Under the pieces are notes generated by a model, which had not been told where the DNA came from, ran no database searches, and saw nothing but the letters and a program-made list of their open reading frames with translations. Positions 1 through 5,960 of a stretch of 9,907 nt of DNA are shown in pieces. Numbering within the stretch: the stretch's first letter is position 1; the number at the start of each line of letters is the position of its first letter. The position numbers and the translations under genes were made by a program. This DNA is from a virus (Duplodnaviria > Heunggongvirae > Uroviricota > Caudoviricetes). Location of the stretch: IMG/VR virus record IMGVR_UViG_2534682160_000014; one strand, written 5' to 3'.

Positions 1-1242
1 ATGGCGAGAAAAACACCCCCATTAACCACAGTACAGATCAAAGCAGCCAGACCAGCAGAAAAGGAATACACCCTACAGGACGGCGGAGGGCTTTTTCTCC
101 TGATCAAACCGTCTGGATCAAAACTCTGGAGATTTTCCTACTACCGACCATCGGACAAAAAAAGAATATTGCTGAGTTTTGGATCGCTTGATGATGTTTC
201 CCTGGCTGATGCCAGAAAACGCCGTAGCGAGTACAGGGCGTTAATTCGTGCCGGAACTGACCCGCAGGACCACGAGAGGCAAAAAAGAGAGGCAGAGGCC
301 CGAAGACAAGGGAACACGTTCGAAAATGTGGCAACAGCATGGTACCAGGTGAAAATCAGCCAGAATCTGGCCCCCAATACGATTAAAGACATCTGGCGAT
401 CGCTGGAAAAATATGTATTCCCGTTCATCGGCAACACGCCAATAGACACCCTGACCGCTCGCAGGTTTGTTGAGGTGCTTACCCCCATCAAGGAACGTGG
501 CAACCTGGAAACGCTCAAGCGAGTTTTACAGCGTGTAAATGAGGTAATGGATTACGCCGCCAATAGTGGGATGATTGATGCCAATCCGGCTATGAATGTG
601 CGTAAGGCGTTCCCCTCCCCTGTAAAAAAACATATGCCAACAATCCGCCCCGAACAGCTGCCGGAGCTTATGCAGGCTTTATCAGTATCGGCAACAGAAC
701 GGCAGACCAGATTACTGATTGAATGGCAGTTACTGACCGTAACCCGTCCCGTTGAAGCATCGTCGGCACGCTGGGAAGAAATCGACATGGAGGCGCAACG
801 CTGGACCATACCCGCCGGACGCATGAAGATGCGCCGCGACCACGTTATCCCGCTTTGTGACCAGGCTATGGCAGTGCTGGAGGCTATGAAACCAATCAGC
901 CACCACCGCGATTATGTTTTCCCGAGTCTGAAAGCCCCACGGCAGCCGATGAACAGCCAGACAGCAAACGCAGCATTACGACGCATGGGGTTCGCTGGCG
1001 TGCTGGTGTCTCATGGATTACGCGCCATATTCAGCACAGCAGCGAACGAGGAAGGATTCGAGCCGGACGTAATCGAGGCGGCACTTGCCCACGTCGACAC
1101 CAACGAAGTCAGACGGGCATACAACCGGAGCAACTACATAGAAAAACGCGTGGTGCTTATGCGCTGGTGGGGCGAATTTGTCGAGGCTGCGGCGACGGGC
1201 GTAACCCTCGCCAGTGGTAAAAGGGGTATCCGAGCCGTTTAG
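1..1242 (+). CDS. int: Tyrosine site-specific integrase, P4-like family
   Basis: 413-aa ORF from the ATG at position 1 to TAG at 1240-1242. The C-terminal region carries catalytic-type motifs (HGLRAIFSTAA; AYNRSNYIEKR with the presumed nucleophile Tyr), and the N-terminal ~90 aa is basic and arm-binding-like, as in P4-type integrases. Confidence 0.93.
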   Translation: MARKTPPLTTVQIKAARPAEKEYTLQDGGGLFLLIKPSGSKLWRFSYYRPSDKKRILLSFGSLDDVSLADARKRRSEYRALIRAGTDPQDHERQKREAEARRQGNTFENVATAWYQVKISQNLAPNTIKDIWRSLEKYVFPFIGNTPIDTLTARRFVEVLTPIKERGNLETLKRVLQRVNEVMDYAANSGMIDANPAMNVRKAFPSPVKKHMPTIRPEQLPELMQALSVSATERQTRLLIEWQLLTVTRPVEASSARWEEIDMEAQRWTIPAGRMKMRRDHVIPLCDQAMAVLEAMKPISHHRDYVFPSLKAPRQPMNSQTANAALRRMGFAGVLVSHGLRAIFSTAANEEGFEPDVIEAALAHVDTNEVRRAYNRSNYIEKRVVLMRWWGEFVEAAATGVTLASGKRGIRAV

Positions 1243-1633: not shown

Positions 1634-1668
1634 AAAACGGTGTATACCGTTTAAAAACGGTGAGTACT
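1634..1668 (+). promoter_or_regulatory. Direct repeats (aaaaacggtg x2, 19 bp apart) with a short dyad aacggt/accgtt in the alpA upstream region; candidate regulator binding sites
   Basis: aaaaacggtg at 1634-1643 and 1653-1662; the first copy is followed by an aacggt-gtat-accgtt dyad. Located ~70-100 bp upstream of the alpA-like ATG at 1739. Confidence 0.3.
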
Positions 1669-1738
1669 GTTTTTCCCTGCATCCGATGATTTACCGTATT
1701 TCTCACCGGAATACACCGGATTAATGAGGTAAATCACG

Positions 1739-1944
1739 ATGGAAGCAATCAAAAAAGTCATCTTTCGCCAGGAAGTAAAAAACTTATCCATATTAAGGCA
1801 GACAGCACGCTGCAAAGCATGATCAACGCCGGAGAATTCCCGCAGGGTTTTCGTGTCGGTTTGCGCCGTCGCGGATGGTATGAGGAAGACGTAATCGCAT
1901 GGATGAAAGAACGCGAACAAGAAGCGCGCGGAACGACCGCTTAA
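1739..1944 (+). pseudogene. alpA: AlpA-family (phage transcriptional regulator) gene, apparently disrupted by a 1-nt frameshift in an A6 tract, or a sequencing error at the homopolymer
   Basis: ATG at 1739 with an SD (GAGGT, 1726-1730) opens a frame reading MEAIKKVIFRQEVKN... that stops at TGA 1820-1822. The AlpA-like HTH and C-terminus (…DSTLQSMINAGEFPQGFRVGLRRRGWYEEDVIAWMKERE…) are in the -1 frame, open from 1688 to TAA 1942-1944 but with no ATG/GTG/TTG start upstream of 1819. The frames can be joined at A6 (1777-1782); one extra A gives a continuous 68-aa AlpA-like protein. Confidence 0.55.
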
Positions 1945-1969
1945 CATATATAGGGCAAATGATGAACAT

Positions 1970-1995
1970 AAAAAAAGCGGCCCCGAAATGGAGCC
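1970..1995 (-). terminator. Probable intrinsic terminator for the leftward operon ending at 2066
   Basis: On the minus strand: GGCUCC-AUUUC-GGGGCC hairpin (includes a G-U pair) followed by a U7 run (plus-strand A-run 1970-1976). Lies ~70 nt downstream of the minus-strand stop at 2066-2068. Confidence 0.4.
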
Positions 1996-2065
1996 ACCTT
2001 TCTGAACAATTAACCCGCTGCGCCGTATGTGTCAACAATCATAAGCCTGGGCATGATAACCGCGA

Positions 2066-2269
2066 TCAGGCTGGTGGGCAATTATCTTTCTTGTTGGGGC
2101 CGTATTGTGCTGCCATTTTCATCCGTTCAGAACGTGAATATTTTTTTAGAAACTCATCAAGGACAAAAGCGCATGGTGCGAATCTTTCTGATTCATGCTC
2201 GAGCGCCATATTTTCGTGCTCTCTGTTCGTTTTTTGCGATGGTGTATCGATTGATTCTTTATTGGTCAT
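2066..2269 (-). CDS. Hypothetical small protein (67 aa), second gene of leftward module B; paralog of the 2720..2947 product
   Basis: ORF MTNKES…NCPPA. The start ATG is 9 nt downstream of the conserved 44-nt element. It shares the MTN start and an internal C-A-x-x-x-x-E-x-L block with the 75-aa paralog. Confidence 0.5.
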   Translation of the reverse strand: MTNKESIDTPSQKTNREHENMALEHESERFAPCAFVLDEFLKKYSRSERMKMAAQYGPNKKDNCPPA

Positions 2270-2277
2270 TGTGTGTA

Positions 2278-2321
2278 CCTGTAAAGCAATGCGCCGTAGT
2301 ACCTCACGCCACGGCGCTGAT
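2278..2321 (-). repeat. Conserved 44-nt intergenic hairpin element, copy 1 (between the RHH stop and the small-protein start)
   Basis: mRNA sense: AUCAGCGCCGUGGCGUGAGGUACUACGGCGCAUUGCUUUACAGG. 7-bp stem GCGCCGU/ACGGCGC, 13-nt loop containing GAGGU. Matches 2956-2999 at 43 of 44 positions, with identical placement (begins 5 nt after the upstream stop, ends 9 nt before the downstream ATG). Confidence 0.7.
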
Positions 2322-2326
2322 GTTTT

Positions 2327-2500
2327 TTATCCTTTGGGTTCAATACCGCGTTGCTGTAATTCTTTTCGGAGTACTCGCTTGATCCAGGTGGCTAAAGAAG
2401 TGTCACCGTCTGCTTTCGCTGCCTCTTCAAGTTGTGCTCTGAATTCTTCTGGTAGCCGCATTTGGTATGGAGGCGATCGCTTTTTCAATGGTGTTGACAT
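2327..2500 (-). CDS. Arc/Mnt-like ribbon-helix-helix transcriptional repressor (57 aa)
   Basis: Not in the ORF track (short). Translation from ATG (complement of 2498-2500): MSTPLKKRSPPYQMRLPEEFRAQLEEAAKADGDTSLATWIKRVLRKELQQRGIEPKG. The PYQMRLPEEF beta-strand followed by two helices matches the Arc-type RHH pattern. The start codon sits inside a palindromic operator. Confidence 0.7.
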   Translation of the reverse strand: MSTPLKKRSPPYQMRLPEEFRAQLEEAAKADGDTSLATWIKRVLRKELQQRGIEPKG

Positions 2501-2546
2501 GGTAATTACCCTTAATTACTATAGTTACATGGTAATTACCATTGTA
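2494..2546. promoter_or_regulatory. Divergent promoter/operator region of module B
   Basis: Perfect 10-bp palindrome ggtaattacc at 2501-2510 and 2531-2540 (each preceded by acat), plus a partial copy taattac at 2514-2520. Plus strand: TTGACA (2494-2499) - 17 bp - TACTAT (2517-2522). Minus strand: TTGTTT (2568..2563) - 16 bp - TACAAT (2546..2541). Operators overlap both promoters and the RHH start codon. Confidence 0.6.
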
Positions 2547-2562
2547 CTTACCGTTATACAAA

Positions 2563-2609
2563 AAACAACGCCCCGCAGTGGTGGCTCACATACGGGGCGT
2601 CTAACCAAA
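2563..2609. repeat. Conserved hairpin element M2, copy 1; terminator-like on the minus strand and 5' leader on the plus strand
   Basis: Outer stem cgccccg (2569-2575) / cggggcg (2593-2599), inner stem gtg/cac, variable apical loop. On the minus strand it is followed by UUGUUUUUUGU. The paralogous copy at 3303-3349 has identical stems and a different apical loop. Confidence 0.6.
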
Positions 2610-2680
2610 CCATTAATTGAGGTAACGATTATGGCTATAAAAGAGCATAGCTTACTCTTTATACACACACAAACGCCCCG

Positions 2681-2700
2681 GAAACGGAATAATCCGTTTC
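2681..2700. terminator. Hairpin (8-bp stem gaaacgga / tccgtttc, loop ATAA) just downstream of the 2720..2947 minus-strand gene; possible terminator or attenuator
   Basis: Perfect inverted repeat seen directly. U/G-rich sequence follows on the minus strand and a T-rich stretch on the plus strand. Function not resolved. Confidence 0.35.
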
Positions 2701-2719
2701 ATAGTTCGGTTTTGTGTAC

Positions 2720-2947
2720 TCATCCTGGCGGGCGATTCTTACGGGACTTTAGCCGCCGTGGGCAGCTTGCTAAAAATGCCTCCAACGCGAATAGTCCAGG
2801 TTTCATTTCTATCGGTATTAGTTGGATATTCAGAGGATTAGCCAGTTCGGCTTCAAGGCGAGCACAGGTTTCTAACTGCCTTTGCCGAATGATTTCATCT
2901 TCTTGCGTCTGCGTGTCTTGTATTGGTGATAGTGTGTTGTTGGTCAT
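2720..2947 (-). CDS. Hypothetical small protein (75 aa), second gene of leftward module A; paralog of the 2066..2269 product
   Basis: ORF MTNNTLSPIQ…; the ATG is 9 nt downstream of the conserved 44-nt element copy 2. Confidence 0.5.
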   Translation of the reverse strand: MTNNTLSPIQDTQTQEDEIIRQRQLETCARLEAELANPLNIQLIPIEMKPGLFALEAFLASCPRRLKSRKNRPPG

Positions 2948-2955
2948 GGTACTGC

Positions 2956-2999
2956 CCTGTAAAGCAATGCGCCGTAGTACCTCACACCACGGCGCTGAT
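2956..2999 (-). repeat. Conserved 44-nt intergenic hairpin element, copy 2
   Basis: Differs from copy 1 at a single loop position (GGUGUGAGG vs GGCGUGAGG in mRNA sense). Same spacing to the flanking stop and start codons. Confidence 0.7.
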
Positions 3000-3004
3000 A
3001 GTGA

Positions 3005-3184
3005 TTATTCTGATTCTTTGGCCTTGCGGCGCTGGCGGCGTTTGATCTCGCCTTTTGCTGCCGTAACTAGAAATCCGGCGGTACTTTCGCCAGGTTCTTT
3101 AAGTTGCTCAATATCGGTCATTACCTCATGCGGGATTCTGACCGTTGTCATTTGTGATTTTGCGTTCTTTGCACCTGTTGCCAT
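3005..3184 (-). CDS. Ribbon-helix-helix-like small DNA-binding protein (59 aa), first gene of leftward module A
   Basis: ATG (complement of 3182-3184) preceded by SD AGGAGAA. Translation MATGAKNAKSQMTTVRIPHEVMTDIEQLKEPGESTAGFLVTAAKGEIKRRQRRKAKESE has a beta-strand (TVRIP) plus two-helix pattern and a basic tail. The 220-aa track ORF 3005..3667 is a spurious upstream extension. Confidence 0.6.
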   Translation of the reverse strand: MATGAKNAKSQMTTVRIPHEVMTDIEQLKEPGESTAGFLVTAAKGEIKRRQRRKAKESE

Positions 3185-3204
3185 TTCTGGTTCTCCTGAT
3201 AATC

Positions 3205-3297
3205 GGTGTATTTCAGTATACGCAAAAAAAAAGATAAAAAAAGTCTTGCGGTGTATTTCACTTGAATGTAGATTTAAAAATGAAGGTGAAATACACC
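3205..3297. promoter_or_regulatory. Divergent promoter/operator region of module A
   Basis: ggtgtatttca at 3205-3215; ggtgtatttcac at 3250-3261 with its perfect inverted partner gtgaaatacacc at 3286-3297 (24-bp spacer). Plus strand: TTGCGG (3246-3251) - 17 bp - TAGATT (3269-3274). The operator sequence is different from module B. Confidence 0.55.
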
Positions 3298-3302
3298 TAA
3301 AA

Positions 3303-3349
3303 CAACAACGCCCCGCAGTGATGGGAACACATACGGGGCGTCTAACCAA
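3303..3349. repeat. Conserved hairpin element M2, copy 2
   Basis: cgccccg (3309-3315) / cggggcg (3334-3340) with inner gtg/cac. T-rich on the minus-strand 3' side. Followed on the plus strand by an SD (GAGGAG) and the ATG at 3371. Confidence 0.6.
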
Positions 3350-3370
3350 CAACGTAAACGAGGAGCCGTT

Positions 3371-3571
3371 ATGGTTGCCGTAAATCATACCCCACACCTT
3401 GTACACACACAAACTGCCTTTGTGTGGCGTTTTCTGGCACTGAGTGCCGGAGAATCTCAAATCATCCACGTAACCGCCTGGACGGAACGCGAAGCGCGTA
3501 ACCGTTGCCCGTCCGGTTGTGTTGCTGTATTTGCCGCCCGTATTCGCCAGGGGGAAACCTATGCACAATAA
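3371..3571 (+). CDS. Possible leader ORF (66 aa) at the head of the rightward operon
   Basis: ATG with a good SD. The N-terminus MVAVNHTPHLVHTQT parallels MAIKEHSLLFIHTQT at the equivalent site in module B (ATG 2631). The rest has no recognisable features and overlaps the next gene's start. Coding status uncertain. Confidence 0.3.
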   Translation: MVAVNHTPHLVHTQTAFVWRFLALSAGESQIIHVTAWTEREARNRCPSGCVAVFAARIRQGETYAQ

Positions 3572-4254: not shown

Positions 4255-4554
4255 ATGAAACTTAAATATTCTGGCTTAACTGCCAGTGGCAACACTCACC
4301 CTAAATTTACGCGCGGTGATATTTACCGCGACCAGTACGGCGGCACGGTAATGATTAAGGGCGTGGCGGGACGGTGCGTAACTTACCGCCGTGAAGGTTA
4401 CGAATATGATTGCGTGATGCCTGTTTATCAGTTCCGGCGTGATTTTTCTCTGGTACAGACCGCGCCGCATAACGTGCCCACCAGCAACGCCAGCGCACGG
4501 GCAAACATCCAGAAGCTGAAAACCATGATTAACGGATTCAGGGGTAAAAAATGA
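4255..4554 (+). CDS. Hypothetical protein (99 aa)
   Basis: ATG 4255 with upstream GGAGAA. The stop overlaps the rep start (ATGA at 4551-4554), indicating translational coupling. Confidence 0.55.
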   Translation: MKLKYSGLTASGNTHPKFTRGDIYRDQYGGTVMIKGVAGRCVTYRREGYEYDCVMPVYQFRRDFSLVQTAPHNVPTSNASARANIQKLKTMINGFRGKK

Positions 4555-5960
4555 AACTGGCACCGAACGTAAAACGATTACCGAAAGATAAATACACCGA
4601 TGCGATTATTTTTGCGGGTATTGATGCTCATTCATTCGCAGAGCATTACATCATTGCACAGGCCAAAAAAGCAGGCGATCCAGTCCCTCCCGTTTATCTG
4701 GGGCGTTATCAGTTAAGCGAACTGGATAACCTCCAGATTGTTGATGATGGGCGATACAGGGCGACGGTGATACGTGCCGGAAATATTGAAGAGCCGCAGC
4801 TGTTAACCATCGCCACGAAACTGGCGATCGCCGGAGTCCAGGAGGCGCGGCTACTTTCTGAAAATTTAGAATTGCTGGAGGAATGGAGCGACCAGCTTCC
4901 ACGGCTTAGGGAGGCATGGGAACGCGGGGAAAGCCTGGTCATGAAAAAAATCCCCCAGCGAAAAACCAAGCTACCGATGAGCGTTGGATCTACCGGATAC
5001 GACACACAGCTTGATTACGTGGTAAAGGGGATTATTCCGGCATCGTCGCTTTGCAGCATATACGGGGCGAGCGGTTCCTATAAATCATTCCTTGCCGGAT
5101 CGTGGGCGTGTCACGTTTCCACGGGCCGCCAGTGGGGAGGCCGCAGGGTGGCGCATGGCGCTGTTCTCTATGTGGTTGGTGAAGGCGGTATAGGCGTTCC
5201 GCGTCGTGTAAAAGCCTGGGAGGTTGTGCACGATGAGCAGGTGAAAAATCTGTATCTGGTAAACCGTCCCATCTTTCCGGCTGCCCCGCTTGATATTGAT
5301 GAAATGGTTATCGCTGCCAGCCAGGTGGAGCGGGAAACGGGTAAACCGGTCCGAATGATTATTCTGGATACGCTGGCGCGTTGCTTTGGCGGCAATGATG
5401 AAAATGATTCCCGTGATATGGGGGCGTTTATCCGTGGGTGTGACGAACTGAAACGGCGCACAGGGGCCACGGTGCTGGTGGTTCACCATTCCGGCAAGGA
5501 TGAGACGAAAGGCGCGCGCGGTTCCAGTGCATTTCGTGCATCACTGGATGCTGAATACCGGATACGCAGGGAGGACGCAGGAAGCGAAGCGCTGGTTATC
5601 TCATGCACCAAAATGAAGGACGCGGAGGAACTCAAAGAAGCCGCATATGACTTACGCGTGGTGGAGCTTTTTACCGACGCTGACGGTGAGTTAATCACGT
5701 CGCTGGTGGTGGTGGATAAGCCGCGCCCTCCCGTTGAACTGGAGCGCATCGAGGAGGCAGGGAACAAGACGGAGAATCACGCCGCGCTATGGCAGTGCAT
5801 CAGAACACGAACAGCACACGGGGAGGCGTGCACTATCGCCCTTCTCCGCGACGATATGAAAAAGCTGGGGTATGAGATGAAGCACTTCCGGCGCTGGCTG
5901 TACAAGCTGGAAAATGATGGCGTAATCGTTATTGACGGTGATGACGTGCGCCCGCTGTAA
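4551..5960 (+). CDS. Replication initiator / helicase-like ATPase (RepA / AAA_25-like, RecA-fold) of the island
   Basis: 469 aa. P-loop-like GASGSYKS (5064-5087), and HHSGKDETKGARGSSAF, a motif typical of RepA/DnaB-like AAA_25 ATPases. An iteron array starts immediately downstream of the stop. Confidence 0.75.
   Translation: MKLAPNVKRLPKDKYTDAIIFAGIDAHSFAEHYIIAQAKKAGDPVPPVYLGRYQLSELDNLQIVDDGRYRATVIRAGNIEEPQLLTIATKLAIAGVQEARLLSENLELLEEWSDQLPRLREAWERGESLVMKKIPQRKTKLPMSVGSTGYDTQLDYVVKGIIPASSLCSIYGASGSYKSFLAGSWACHVSTGRQWGGRRVAHGAVLYVVGEGGIGVPRRVKAWEVVHDEQVKNLYLVNRPIFPAAPLDIDEMVIAASQVERETGKPVRMIILDTLARCFGGNDENDSRDMGAFIRGCDELKRRTGATVLVVHHSGKDETKGARGSSAFRASLDAEYRIRREDAGSEALVISCTKMKDAEELKEAAYDLRVVELFTDADGELITSLVVVDKPRPPVELERIEEAGNKTENHAALWQCIRTRTAHGEACTIALLRDDMKKLGYEMKHFRRWLYKLENDGVIVIDGDDVRPL

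Follow-up and report, generated by a model that had tools for sequence, protein, structure and literature searches.

The MS2 coat-replicase operator, the thrS leader and 5' stabilizer hairpins such as that of ompA are hairpins that lie at the 5' edge of a ribosome-binding site. Here we analysed a 44-nt element, which we call h1, that occurs twice in a 9,907-nt stretch of DNA (the window) from a virus of the class Caudoviricetes (IMG/VR record IMGVR_UViG_2534682160_000014). h1 is like them in having a stable hairpin ~20 nt upstream of a start codon, with constraint on the loop sequence and an unvarying distance to the ribosome-binding site. It is unlike them in that its hairpin excludes both the Shine-Dalgarno (SD) sequence and the AUG, and in that h1 has no known binding protein or processing event. 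h1 is a new candidate within the familiar class of cis-regulatory mRNA hairpins, absent from Rfam 15; the searchable literature, queried by gene names and by the sequence itself, holds nothing on the element.

In immI of phage P22 (arc-ant, with the sar RNA), a short, conserved and structured spacer separates an Arc-type ribbon-helix-helix (RHH) repressor gene from a downstream gene for which the dose relative to the repressor is important, and the h1 locus has this layout. However, the active element of P22 is an opposite-strand antisense RNA, whereas for h1 the mRNA strand is favoured by the evidence and the search for an antisense promoter gave none. In lambda (cro-nutR-tR1 and nutL), as at this locus, conserved hairpins on both divergent early transcripts flank a variable repressor-operator region, one of them directly after a small repressor gene. 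Unlike lambda nut, h1 has neither the boxB geometry nor the boxA consensus, h1 and the second hairpin of the locus (h2) are not one family, and no N-like factor is known for these islands. The P4 immunity RNAs (Rfam families C4/CI RNA, isrK and c4-a1b1) occupy the same genomic neighbourhood in related satellites (loci L003 and L005 of our comparison), but the window matches none of these families, P4 lacks h1, and C4-h1 pairing is at the level of shuffled sequences.

The window is an Escherichia coli phage satellite of the capsid-encoding kind, akin to P4 and to the phage-inducible chromosomal islands (PICIs), with a tandemly duplicated control module. Both the silencing and the switching on of Gram-negative PICIs are poorly understood; their induction needs alpA (bioRxiv 10.1101/2022.09.08.507074). 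The control region is a divergent unit that reads leftward from RHH gene to h1, small gene and terminator, and rightward from h2 to an icd-like gene and on to the primase; it occurs twice in tandem in the window, each copy with its own operator-like repeats. The locus holds a hypervariable RHH repressor with its own operators between two nearly invariant RNA hairpins. That a sequence stays constant while the modules on either side of it exchange freely strongly suggests a common control step, and h1 can serve as a 44-nt marker of the regulatory module. The leftward features around h1 are as follows.

2278-2321, minus strand: h1 copy 1, covariance-model match of 75.4 bits
2956-2999, minus strand: h1 copy 2, covariance-model match of 76.5 bits, terminator-like in a simple scan
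2327-2500, minus strand: RHH1, Arc-like RHH protein of 57 amino acids (weak Pfam Arc and NCBIfam YlcI_YnfO_N matches; PHROG Arc-like repressor, 4.9e-7)
3005-3184, minus strand: RHH2, YlcI/YnfO-family RHH protein of 59 amino acids (NCBIfam YlcI_YnfO_N, 3.8e-17)
2066-2269, minus strand: small1, 67 amino acids, family A, motif ESERFAPCAF.L.EFLKKY (phrog_21027, unknown function)
2720-2947, minus strand: small2, 75 amino acids, family B, ending FALEAFL..CPRRLKSRKNRPPG (sequence motif and multiple alignment)

Conservation and gene context of h1

The original prediction held that the two h1 copies match at 43 of 44 positions between heavily diverged genes, and direct comparison agrees: the sole difference is G/A at 2308/2986, in the loop. 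The pair forms the centre of D1, at 75 nt and 83% identity the longest direct repeat of the region; identity thus drops sharply on either side. RHH1 and RHH2 share 28% identity at a non-significant BLASTP E of 0.79, and small1 and small2 give no BLASTP alignment, with weak homology of ~33% in a multiple alignment.

In mRNA sense, copy 1 consists of AUCA, the 5' arm GCGCCGU (2311-2317), the loop GGCGUGAGGUACU (2298-2310), the 3' arm ACGGCGC (2291-2297) and the tail AUUGCUUUACAGG (2278-2290). Copy 2 has the same arms at 2989-2995 and 2969-2975, the loop GGUGUGAGGUACU at 2976-2988 and its tail at 2956-2968; its stem can be extended to 11 bp by G·U pairs in the minus-strand RNA, leaving the pentaloop UGAGG. 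The 7-bp stem and the 13-nt loop with GAGGU are as first described. The order is upstream stop, 9 nt, 27-nt hairpin, 21 nt and small-gene ATG, as for RHH1 and small1. The element does begin 5 nt after each RHH stop, but it ends 8 nt, not the predicted 9 nt, before the ATG (2267-2269 and 2945-2947). GAGGU had been called SD-like; it lies in the loop ~31-36 nt from the ATG but is unlikely to be a working SD, since a conserved (A/G)CAGG stands 8-9 nt before the ATG and variants with GAGUA instead retain the gene.

With a 61-nt query around h1, we searched 5,426 complete E. coli genomes and found the element at 2,695 places in 1,546 of them, far past chance, with up to 7 copies per genome and all but two copies chromosomal. 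A word-11 blastn search of a 50,697-record phage collection gave no match, and the h1-derived covariance model had none in P4. No Rfam 15 family matched h1 when the whole window was searched at E ≤ 1 and positions 2230-2660 at E ≤ 10; in the positive controls, C4 (74.9 bits) and isrK (60.8 bits) were recovered from P4, and matches were likewise obtained in L003 and L005. When IMG/VR was scanned with patterns, the first of which fixed the outer stem bases, at least 120 loci came up. The IMG/VR matches listed, the window and seven E. coli loci together form a set of 133 copies, and the copies compared in detail are a small fraction of the 2,695 genomic ones.

Among the matches listed, the stop codon lies exactly 9 nt before the stem in 132 of 133 copies. 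An upstream open reading frame (ORF) of at least 18 amino acids is present in 129/133 (~127 of those are RHH genes), and a small-gene ATG lies at 21 nt, or in frame at 6 nt in the tail variant GCUAUGCAGG, in 117/133. The C-termini of the upstream RHH proteins are of two unrelated kinds (..RRQRRKAKE[SQP]E and ..QQRGIEPKG), their N-termini come in many variants, and the small proteins form two divergent families with a common F-A-L-E-x-F motif. The same few loop variants occur across all RHH types and both small-protein families. Hence, h1 is near-constant while its flanks vary, as claimed. A recent local gene-conversion tract, named at the outset as what would undo the claim, is rejected, since the same core lies between many unrelated flank combinations in >1,500 genomes.

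The placement of the hairpin between an RHH gene and its small gene is the common layout but not the defining one, and h1 travels with the small-gene family. It was in place at all 30 of the 30 IMG/VR loci that we retrieved via the small protein alone, the hairpin sequence not being used. L003 and L161 have h1 and the small gene without an RHH gene, a remnant of the RHH 3' end being recognizable by eye only in L003, and L004 has two consecutive units of h1 and small gene. RHH homologs in Dryocola, Citrobacter and Edwardsiella (L129-131) have neither h1 nor small gene; downstream of them lie an ordinary intrinsic terminator in Dryocola, a terminator-like hairpin ~80 nt on in Citrobacter and nothing evident of the kind in Edwardsiella. 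An RHH-anchored scan with one genome per species gave just these three loci, with h1 in 0/3, and a scan for the L003/L161 small-gene start gave one contig only. Hence, judged by the loci that carry it, h1 is primarily a leader of the small-gene family and also marks a module boundary.

Stem, loop and strand

Among the 31 common variants, the helix is 90% paired and hardly varies. We found compensatory changes at pair 10-28 (C-G to U-A, L003) and at pairs 6-32 (G-C to U-A) and 7-31 (C-G to U-A) in L161/L004. With the divergent lineages included, the covariation score was 0.161 vs 0.120 ± 0.010 for shuffled alignments; 0 of 500 shuffles reached it and all slid controls were lower. In L161, the loop and tail are essentially unchanged despite three altered stem pairs, which suggests sequence-specific constraint on loop and tail beyond the helix.

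Six one-sided stem changes, at 8-30 (twice), 7-31, 10-28, 11-27 and 12-26, create a wobble pair (G·U or U·G) in RNA of the minus strand where the plus strand would have A·C. They include a tandem U·G/G·U in L164, and one change (L171) has the opposite direction. The mean hairpin energy is -15.7 kcal/mol in minus sense vs -12.4 kcal/mol in plus sense. Scans forcing a non-consensus base at the C position found 16 genuine copies of 3 variant types (17 stretches with the chance match L163), and those at the two G positions found 2 copies (1 uncompensated) and 0. Alifold gave only the hairpin, and no larger conserved structure around h1. The helix appears to be kept by compensatory and wobble changes on the transcribed strand, with modest support from few lineages. 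Hence, the compensatory pairs, the 6:1 excess of G·U changes and the better folding energy favour, though not decisively, a hairpin that acts as a minus-strand mRNA structure.

Readings of h1

h1 is probably a new cis-acting mRNA control element. The original prediction of a cis-acting RNA element remains the best reading, given the conservation, the kept stem and the favoured mRNA strand, although the RHH–small-gene position to which it was tied is not defining. Specifically, we tentatively hold, at somewhat less than even confidence, that h1 is a cis-acting stem-loop on the leftward mRNA of PICI/P4-like satellites from enterobacteria, where it exerts post-transcriptional control of small-gene expression. 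h1 would be transcribed together with the upstream RHH repressor gene where one is present; no promoter is evident at or next to h1 on either strand, nor internally between RHH and small gene. A GC-rich hairpin of at least 7 bp and -13 to -19 kcal/mol would form on this mRNA.

By the footprints of ribosomes, a 9-nt post-stop spacer should spare the stem, and a stem ending at -22 abuts the initiating 30S subunit. The ribosome terminating on the RHH gene should accordingly leave the stem unmelted, 9 nt from the stop, and the stem end at -22 would abut the 5' edge of the small-gene ribosome-binding site with its weak SD, CAGG. Given these two spacings, the hairpin would persist on a translated message, as operator, insulator or stabilizer. 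We infer that h1 regulates translation or stability and may be bound by a factor: it would set the amount of small protein relative to repressor via control at the small-gene ribosome-binding site, the factor possibly reading the tail AUUGCU together with the conserved loop U-R-A-G-(G/U)-N-A-Y-U.

Several points weigh against this reading. The covariation analysis that had been proposed as a check came out in favour, with three compensatory pairs and the raised score, only through two divergent lineages (L003 and L161/L004); significance is not reached with the 31 common variants alone. The 6:1 wobble excess corresponds to p ~0.06 and comes from few lineages, and the stem-extension pairs are poorly kept in relatives, the closing pair often being U·C. 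The sampled copies are all close relatives, and the three relatives from other genera named above lack h1. No candidate h1-binding protein was identified, and the loop shows no co-variation with the small-protein family. Finally, the L007 type (16 of 133 copies among the matches listed) keeps the hairpin while its small gene is replaced by AT-rich cargo that starts right after the tail. The readings are not all mutually exclusive, and in the L007 type the stem may serve the RHH transcript instead of, or as well as, a small gene.

That last role would be the general one if h1 were a leaky intrinsic terminator and 3'-end stabilizer, with most transcripts ending at, or being trimmed to, the hairpin to give a stable repressor mRNA and only read-through reaching the small gene. 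The position of h1 matches that of the canonical intrinsic terminator in Dryocola (in Citrobacter the terminator-like hairpin is ~80 nt downstream, and none is evident in Edwardsiella), the outer stem is intact in L007-type islands, which have neither a small gene nor another terminator nearby, and the folding energies of h1 are typical of terminators. The 7-bp GC stem of an intrinsic terminator is present, with a loop of 13 nt unless the G·U extension forms, and a simple, lenient scan flags copy 2 (12 pairs, then AUUGCUUUAC) but not copy 1. However, no U-rich tract follows directly 3' of the stem: the tail AUUGCUUUAC or AUUGCUAUGC has 2 U in its first 5 nt, and the tract, AUUGCUUU or AUUGCUAU, is poor beside the U7 of the terminator at 1970-2002. 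Termination also leaves the conserved loop and tail unexplained, as well as a hairpin before the first gene (L003/L161) or before each tandem small gene (L004). We consider this reading unlikely, though it deserves to be kept in mind. Were h1 only a stabilizer or terminator, it would be ordinary biology, still useful for annotation, as PGAP pseudogene calls lie across it.

A bolder reading is that h1 is a dedicated RNA recognition hairpin common to essentially all E. coli PICI/P4-like satellites, through which one trans-acting factor from helper phage, host or satellite gates the small-gene family, with h2 as its parallel on the rightward operon. This we think decidedly unlikely. If true, h1 would be the satellite counterpart of nut and operator sites, tying satellite expression to helper infection.

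We give little credence to a feature of DNA, with the RNA hairpin incidental: either a recombination linker for the exchange of repressor and cargo, alike through repeated exchange, or a protein-binding palindrome. The flanks are mosaic with break points just outside h1, at the RHH 3' end (nucleotide diversity 0.16 vs 0.02-0.04 in h1) and, in the L007 type, right behind the tail; up to 7 copies occur per genome, and the tandem module duplication of the window fits unequal exchange. Yet the tandem U·G/G·U of L164 and the other wobbles break the DNA palindrome and keep the minus-strand RNA helix, and the compensatory changes speak for selection that acts on base pairing. The fixed stop and start spacing is left unexplained if h1 is a linker and nothing more, and the RHH operators are different repeats located elsewhere.

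Also improbable is that h1, perhaps with h2, is recognized by an antiterminator or RNA-binding regulator that acts in trans and comes from satellite, helper phage or host, after the manner of lambda nutR/nutL. h1 follows a Cro-like RHH gene leftward and h2 follows the rightward promoter, together flanking the variable repressor-operator cassette; loop and tail are conserved independently of the stem sequence, a terminator-like hairpin stands early in the rightward operon (3406-3426), and sister islands use termination-based P4 immunity RNAs at this locus. Against this, the h1 covariance model misses h2 even at E = 10, h1 lacks the 5-bp stem and GNRA-like pentaloop of boxB, no N-like protein was identified, and the tail is boxA-like only loosely, its commonest variant AUUGCUAUGC being no match.

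It is very improbable that h1 terminates a plus-strand antisense RNA over the small-gene ribosome-binding site, like the P22 sar RNA in the arc-ant spacer: the layout of Arc-type RHH gene, spacer and regulated gene is shared and the plus-strand hairpin of copy 1 is followed by UGAUGUUUUUUAU, but the T-run occurs only beside Arc-type RHH genes (beside YlcI-type genes it is CUGAUAGUGAUUAUUC), plus-sense stems fold less stably and, in several lineages, pick up A·C mismatches, and scanning and inspection of both families found no conserved plus-strand promoter within the small-gene 5' end.

In all, we tested ten specific alternatives for h1 and none was supported. Besides the Rfam families, the working SD, a larger conserved structure, a promoter at h1, recent gene conversion and a single family of h1 and h2, these include an h1–h2 kissing pair, where the loops pair over 5-7 bp but not consistently in the two modules; a survey of 60 contexts gave no conserved long-range partner for the h1 loop. 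As a target of P4-type C4/CI RNA, h1 gives duplex energies no better than shuffled (p = 0.45 and 0.15). The RfaH ops site (GGCGGTAGCGTG, non-template strand) matches copy 1 at 9/12 positions and L003 at 6/12, but matches with up to 3 mismatches occur 16 times in the window vs 7.75 ± 2.8 expected. By inspection, a nut/boxA site is not supported either, as stem and loop differ from boxB and the tail UUGCUUUAC resembles boxA CGCUCUU(U)A only with a gap. The spacer, 57 nt in every case, keeps both ORFs in one frame, and the upstream stop is always UAA; coding on either strand, read-through and bypass were rejected on in-frame stops in the GAGUAAC-loop variants and in L003/L007, and on substitutions that fall mainly at codon positions 1 and 2.

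The satellite island and its second hairpin

The remaining mapped features of the window are listed below. Further ORFs are SSB-like, protease-like and capsid-like. By BLAST, the same architecture is present in many complete E. coli genomes, where the matching islands are annotated with integrase, AlpA-type helix-turn-helix protein, YlcI/YnfO family protein, Icd-like protein, DUF4222 and primase.

1-1242: integrase
~1739-1944, plus strand: alpA, apparently frameshifted
1970-2002, minus strand: strong intrinsic terminator closing the leftward unit after small1 (13-bp stem, then U7; -19.9 kcal/mol, z -4.5)
2499-2542, no strand: palindromic repeats ATGGTAATTACC within the module 1 divergent promoter region, presumed RHH1 operator (6 matches vs 0.84 expected)
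2568-2607, plus strand: h2 copy 1, leader of the rightward icd-to-primase operon, with invariant tail UCUAACCA (repeats, folding and covariation)
3204-3297, no strand: direct and inverted repeats (C)GGTGTATTTCA(C) within the module 2 promoter region, presumed RHH2 operator (5 matches vs 0.2 expected)
3308-3348, plus strand: h2 copy 2, 23 nt upstream of the Icd-like ORF 3371-3571 (Icd-like NCBIfam, 7.4e-18)
4551-5960: RepA/AAA_25 helicase

h2 has a two-tier stem, 7-8 bp in its outer and 3-5 bp in its inner part with an internal loop between them, then a variable apical loop and, after the hairpin, the invariant UCUAACCA ~20-30 nt before the start codon. Covariation is rich in both of its stems (CGCCCCG/CGGGGCG vs AACCCGG/CCGGGCUU; AGUG/CACU vs ACUG/CAGU). 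We also found h2 in L001, L002, L005-L007 and many IMG/VR loci; it has no Rfam match. About 60 nt past h2, within the first 20 codons of the Icd-like ORF, lies the terminator-like hairpin at 3406-3426 on the plus strand (CACACAAA/UUUGUGUG, then GCGUUUUCU), whose fold is not better than shuffled (z -0.4).

In sister islands, P4-type isrK, c4-a1b1 and C4 (CI RNA) lie on the rightward transcript beside the unit of h1 and small gene (L003, 3227-3417; L005, 3525-3726). L005 has these RNAs in addition to RHH and h2, and L003 has them instead of RHH. Hence, two immunity systems alternate or combine at this locus. L006 has an Rfam int-alpA RNA downstream of its integrase (181-248, plus strand; 45.8 bits, above the gathering score), a match that the window does not have.

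Each module has its own operator-like repeat, ATGGTAATTACC in module 1 and GGTGTATTTCAC in module 2. The RHH2 operator-like CGGTGTATW occurs at 1638-1646 (+), 1710-1718 (-), 3204-3212 (+), 3249-3257 (+) and 4591-4599 (-), that is, 5 times vs 0.2 expected; outside the RHH2 promoter region, the copies bracket the alpA promoter and stand at the start of the helicase gene. This placement suggests that the YlcI/YnfO RHH protein may repress alpA too. The apparent alpA frameshift lies in an A-run near 1775-1785: the N-terminus (MEAIKKVIFRQEVKNLS..) is encoded in one frame and the C-terminus (ORF 1819-1944) in another. This reflects either a pseudogene or a sequencing error.

The module duplication (2560-3350) comprises small gene, h1, RHH gene, operator, h2 and icd start, and the two repressor specificities differ. 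The first icd-like ORF (ATG 2631, MAIKEHSLLFIHTQT..) is truncated at the start of module 2. The duplication is consistent with unequal recombination between satellites.

A stop-free frame of 494 codons (1899-3383, plus strand) runs antisense across both RHH genes, both small genes, the promoters and the h1 copies. Its translation looks non-protein-like, and h1 substitutions have no synonymous bias. PGAP pseudogene calls ('Icd-like', 'BRO-N' and 'ash family') cover the equivalent stretch in L001, L002 and L005. Finally, positions 1633-1672 on the plus strand, between alpA and the terminator that follows ORF 1320-1571, hold a tandem pair of 20-nt repeats, AAAAACGGTGTATACCGTTT and AAAAACGGTGAGTACTGTTT, both of them palindromic in part.

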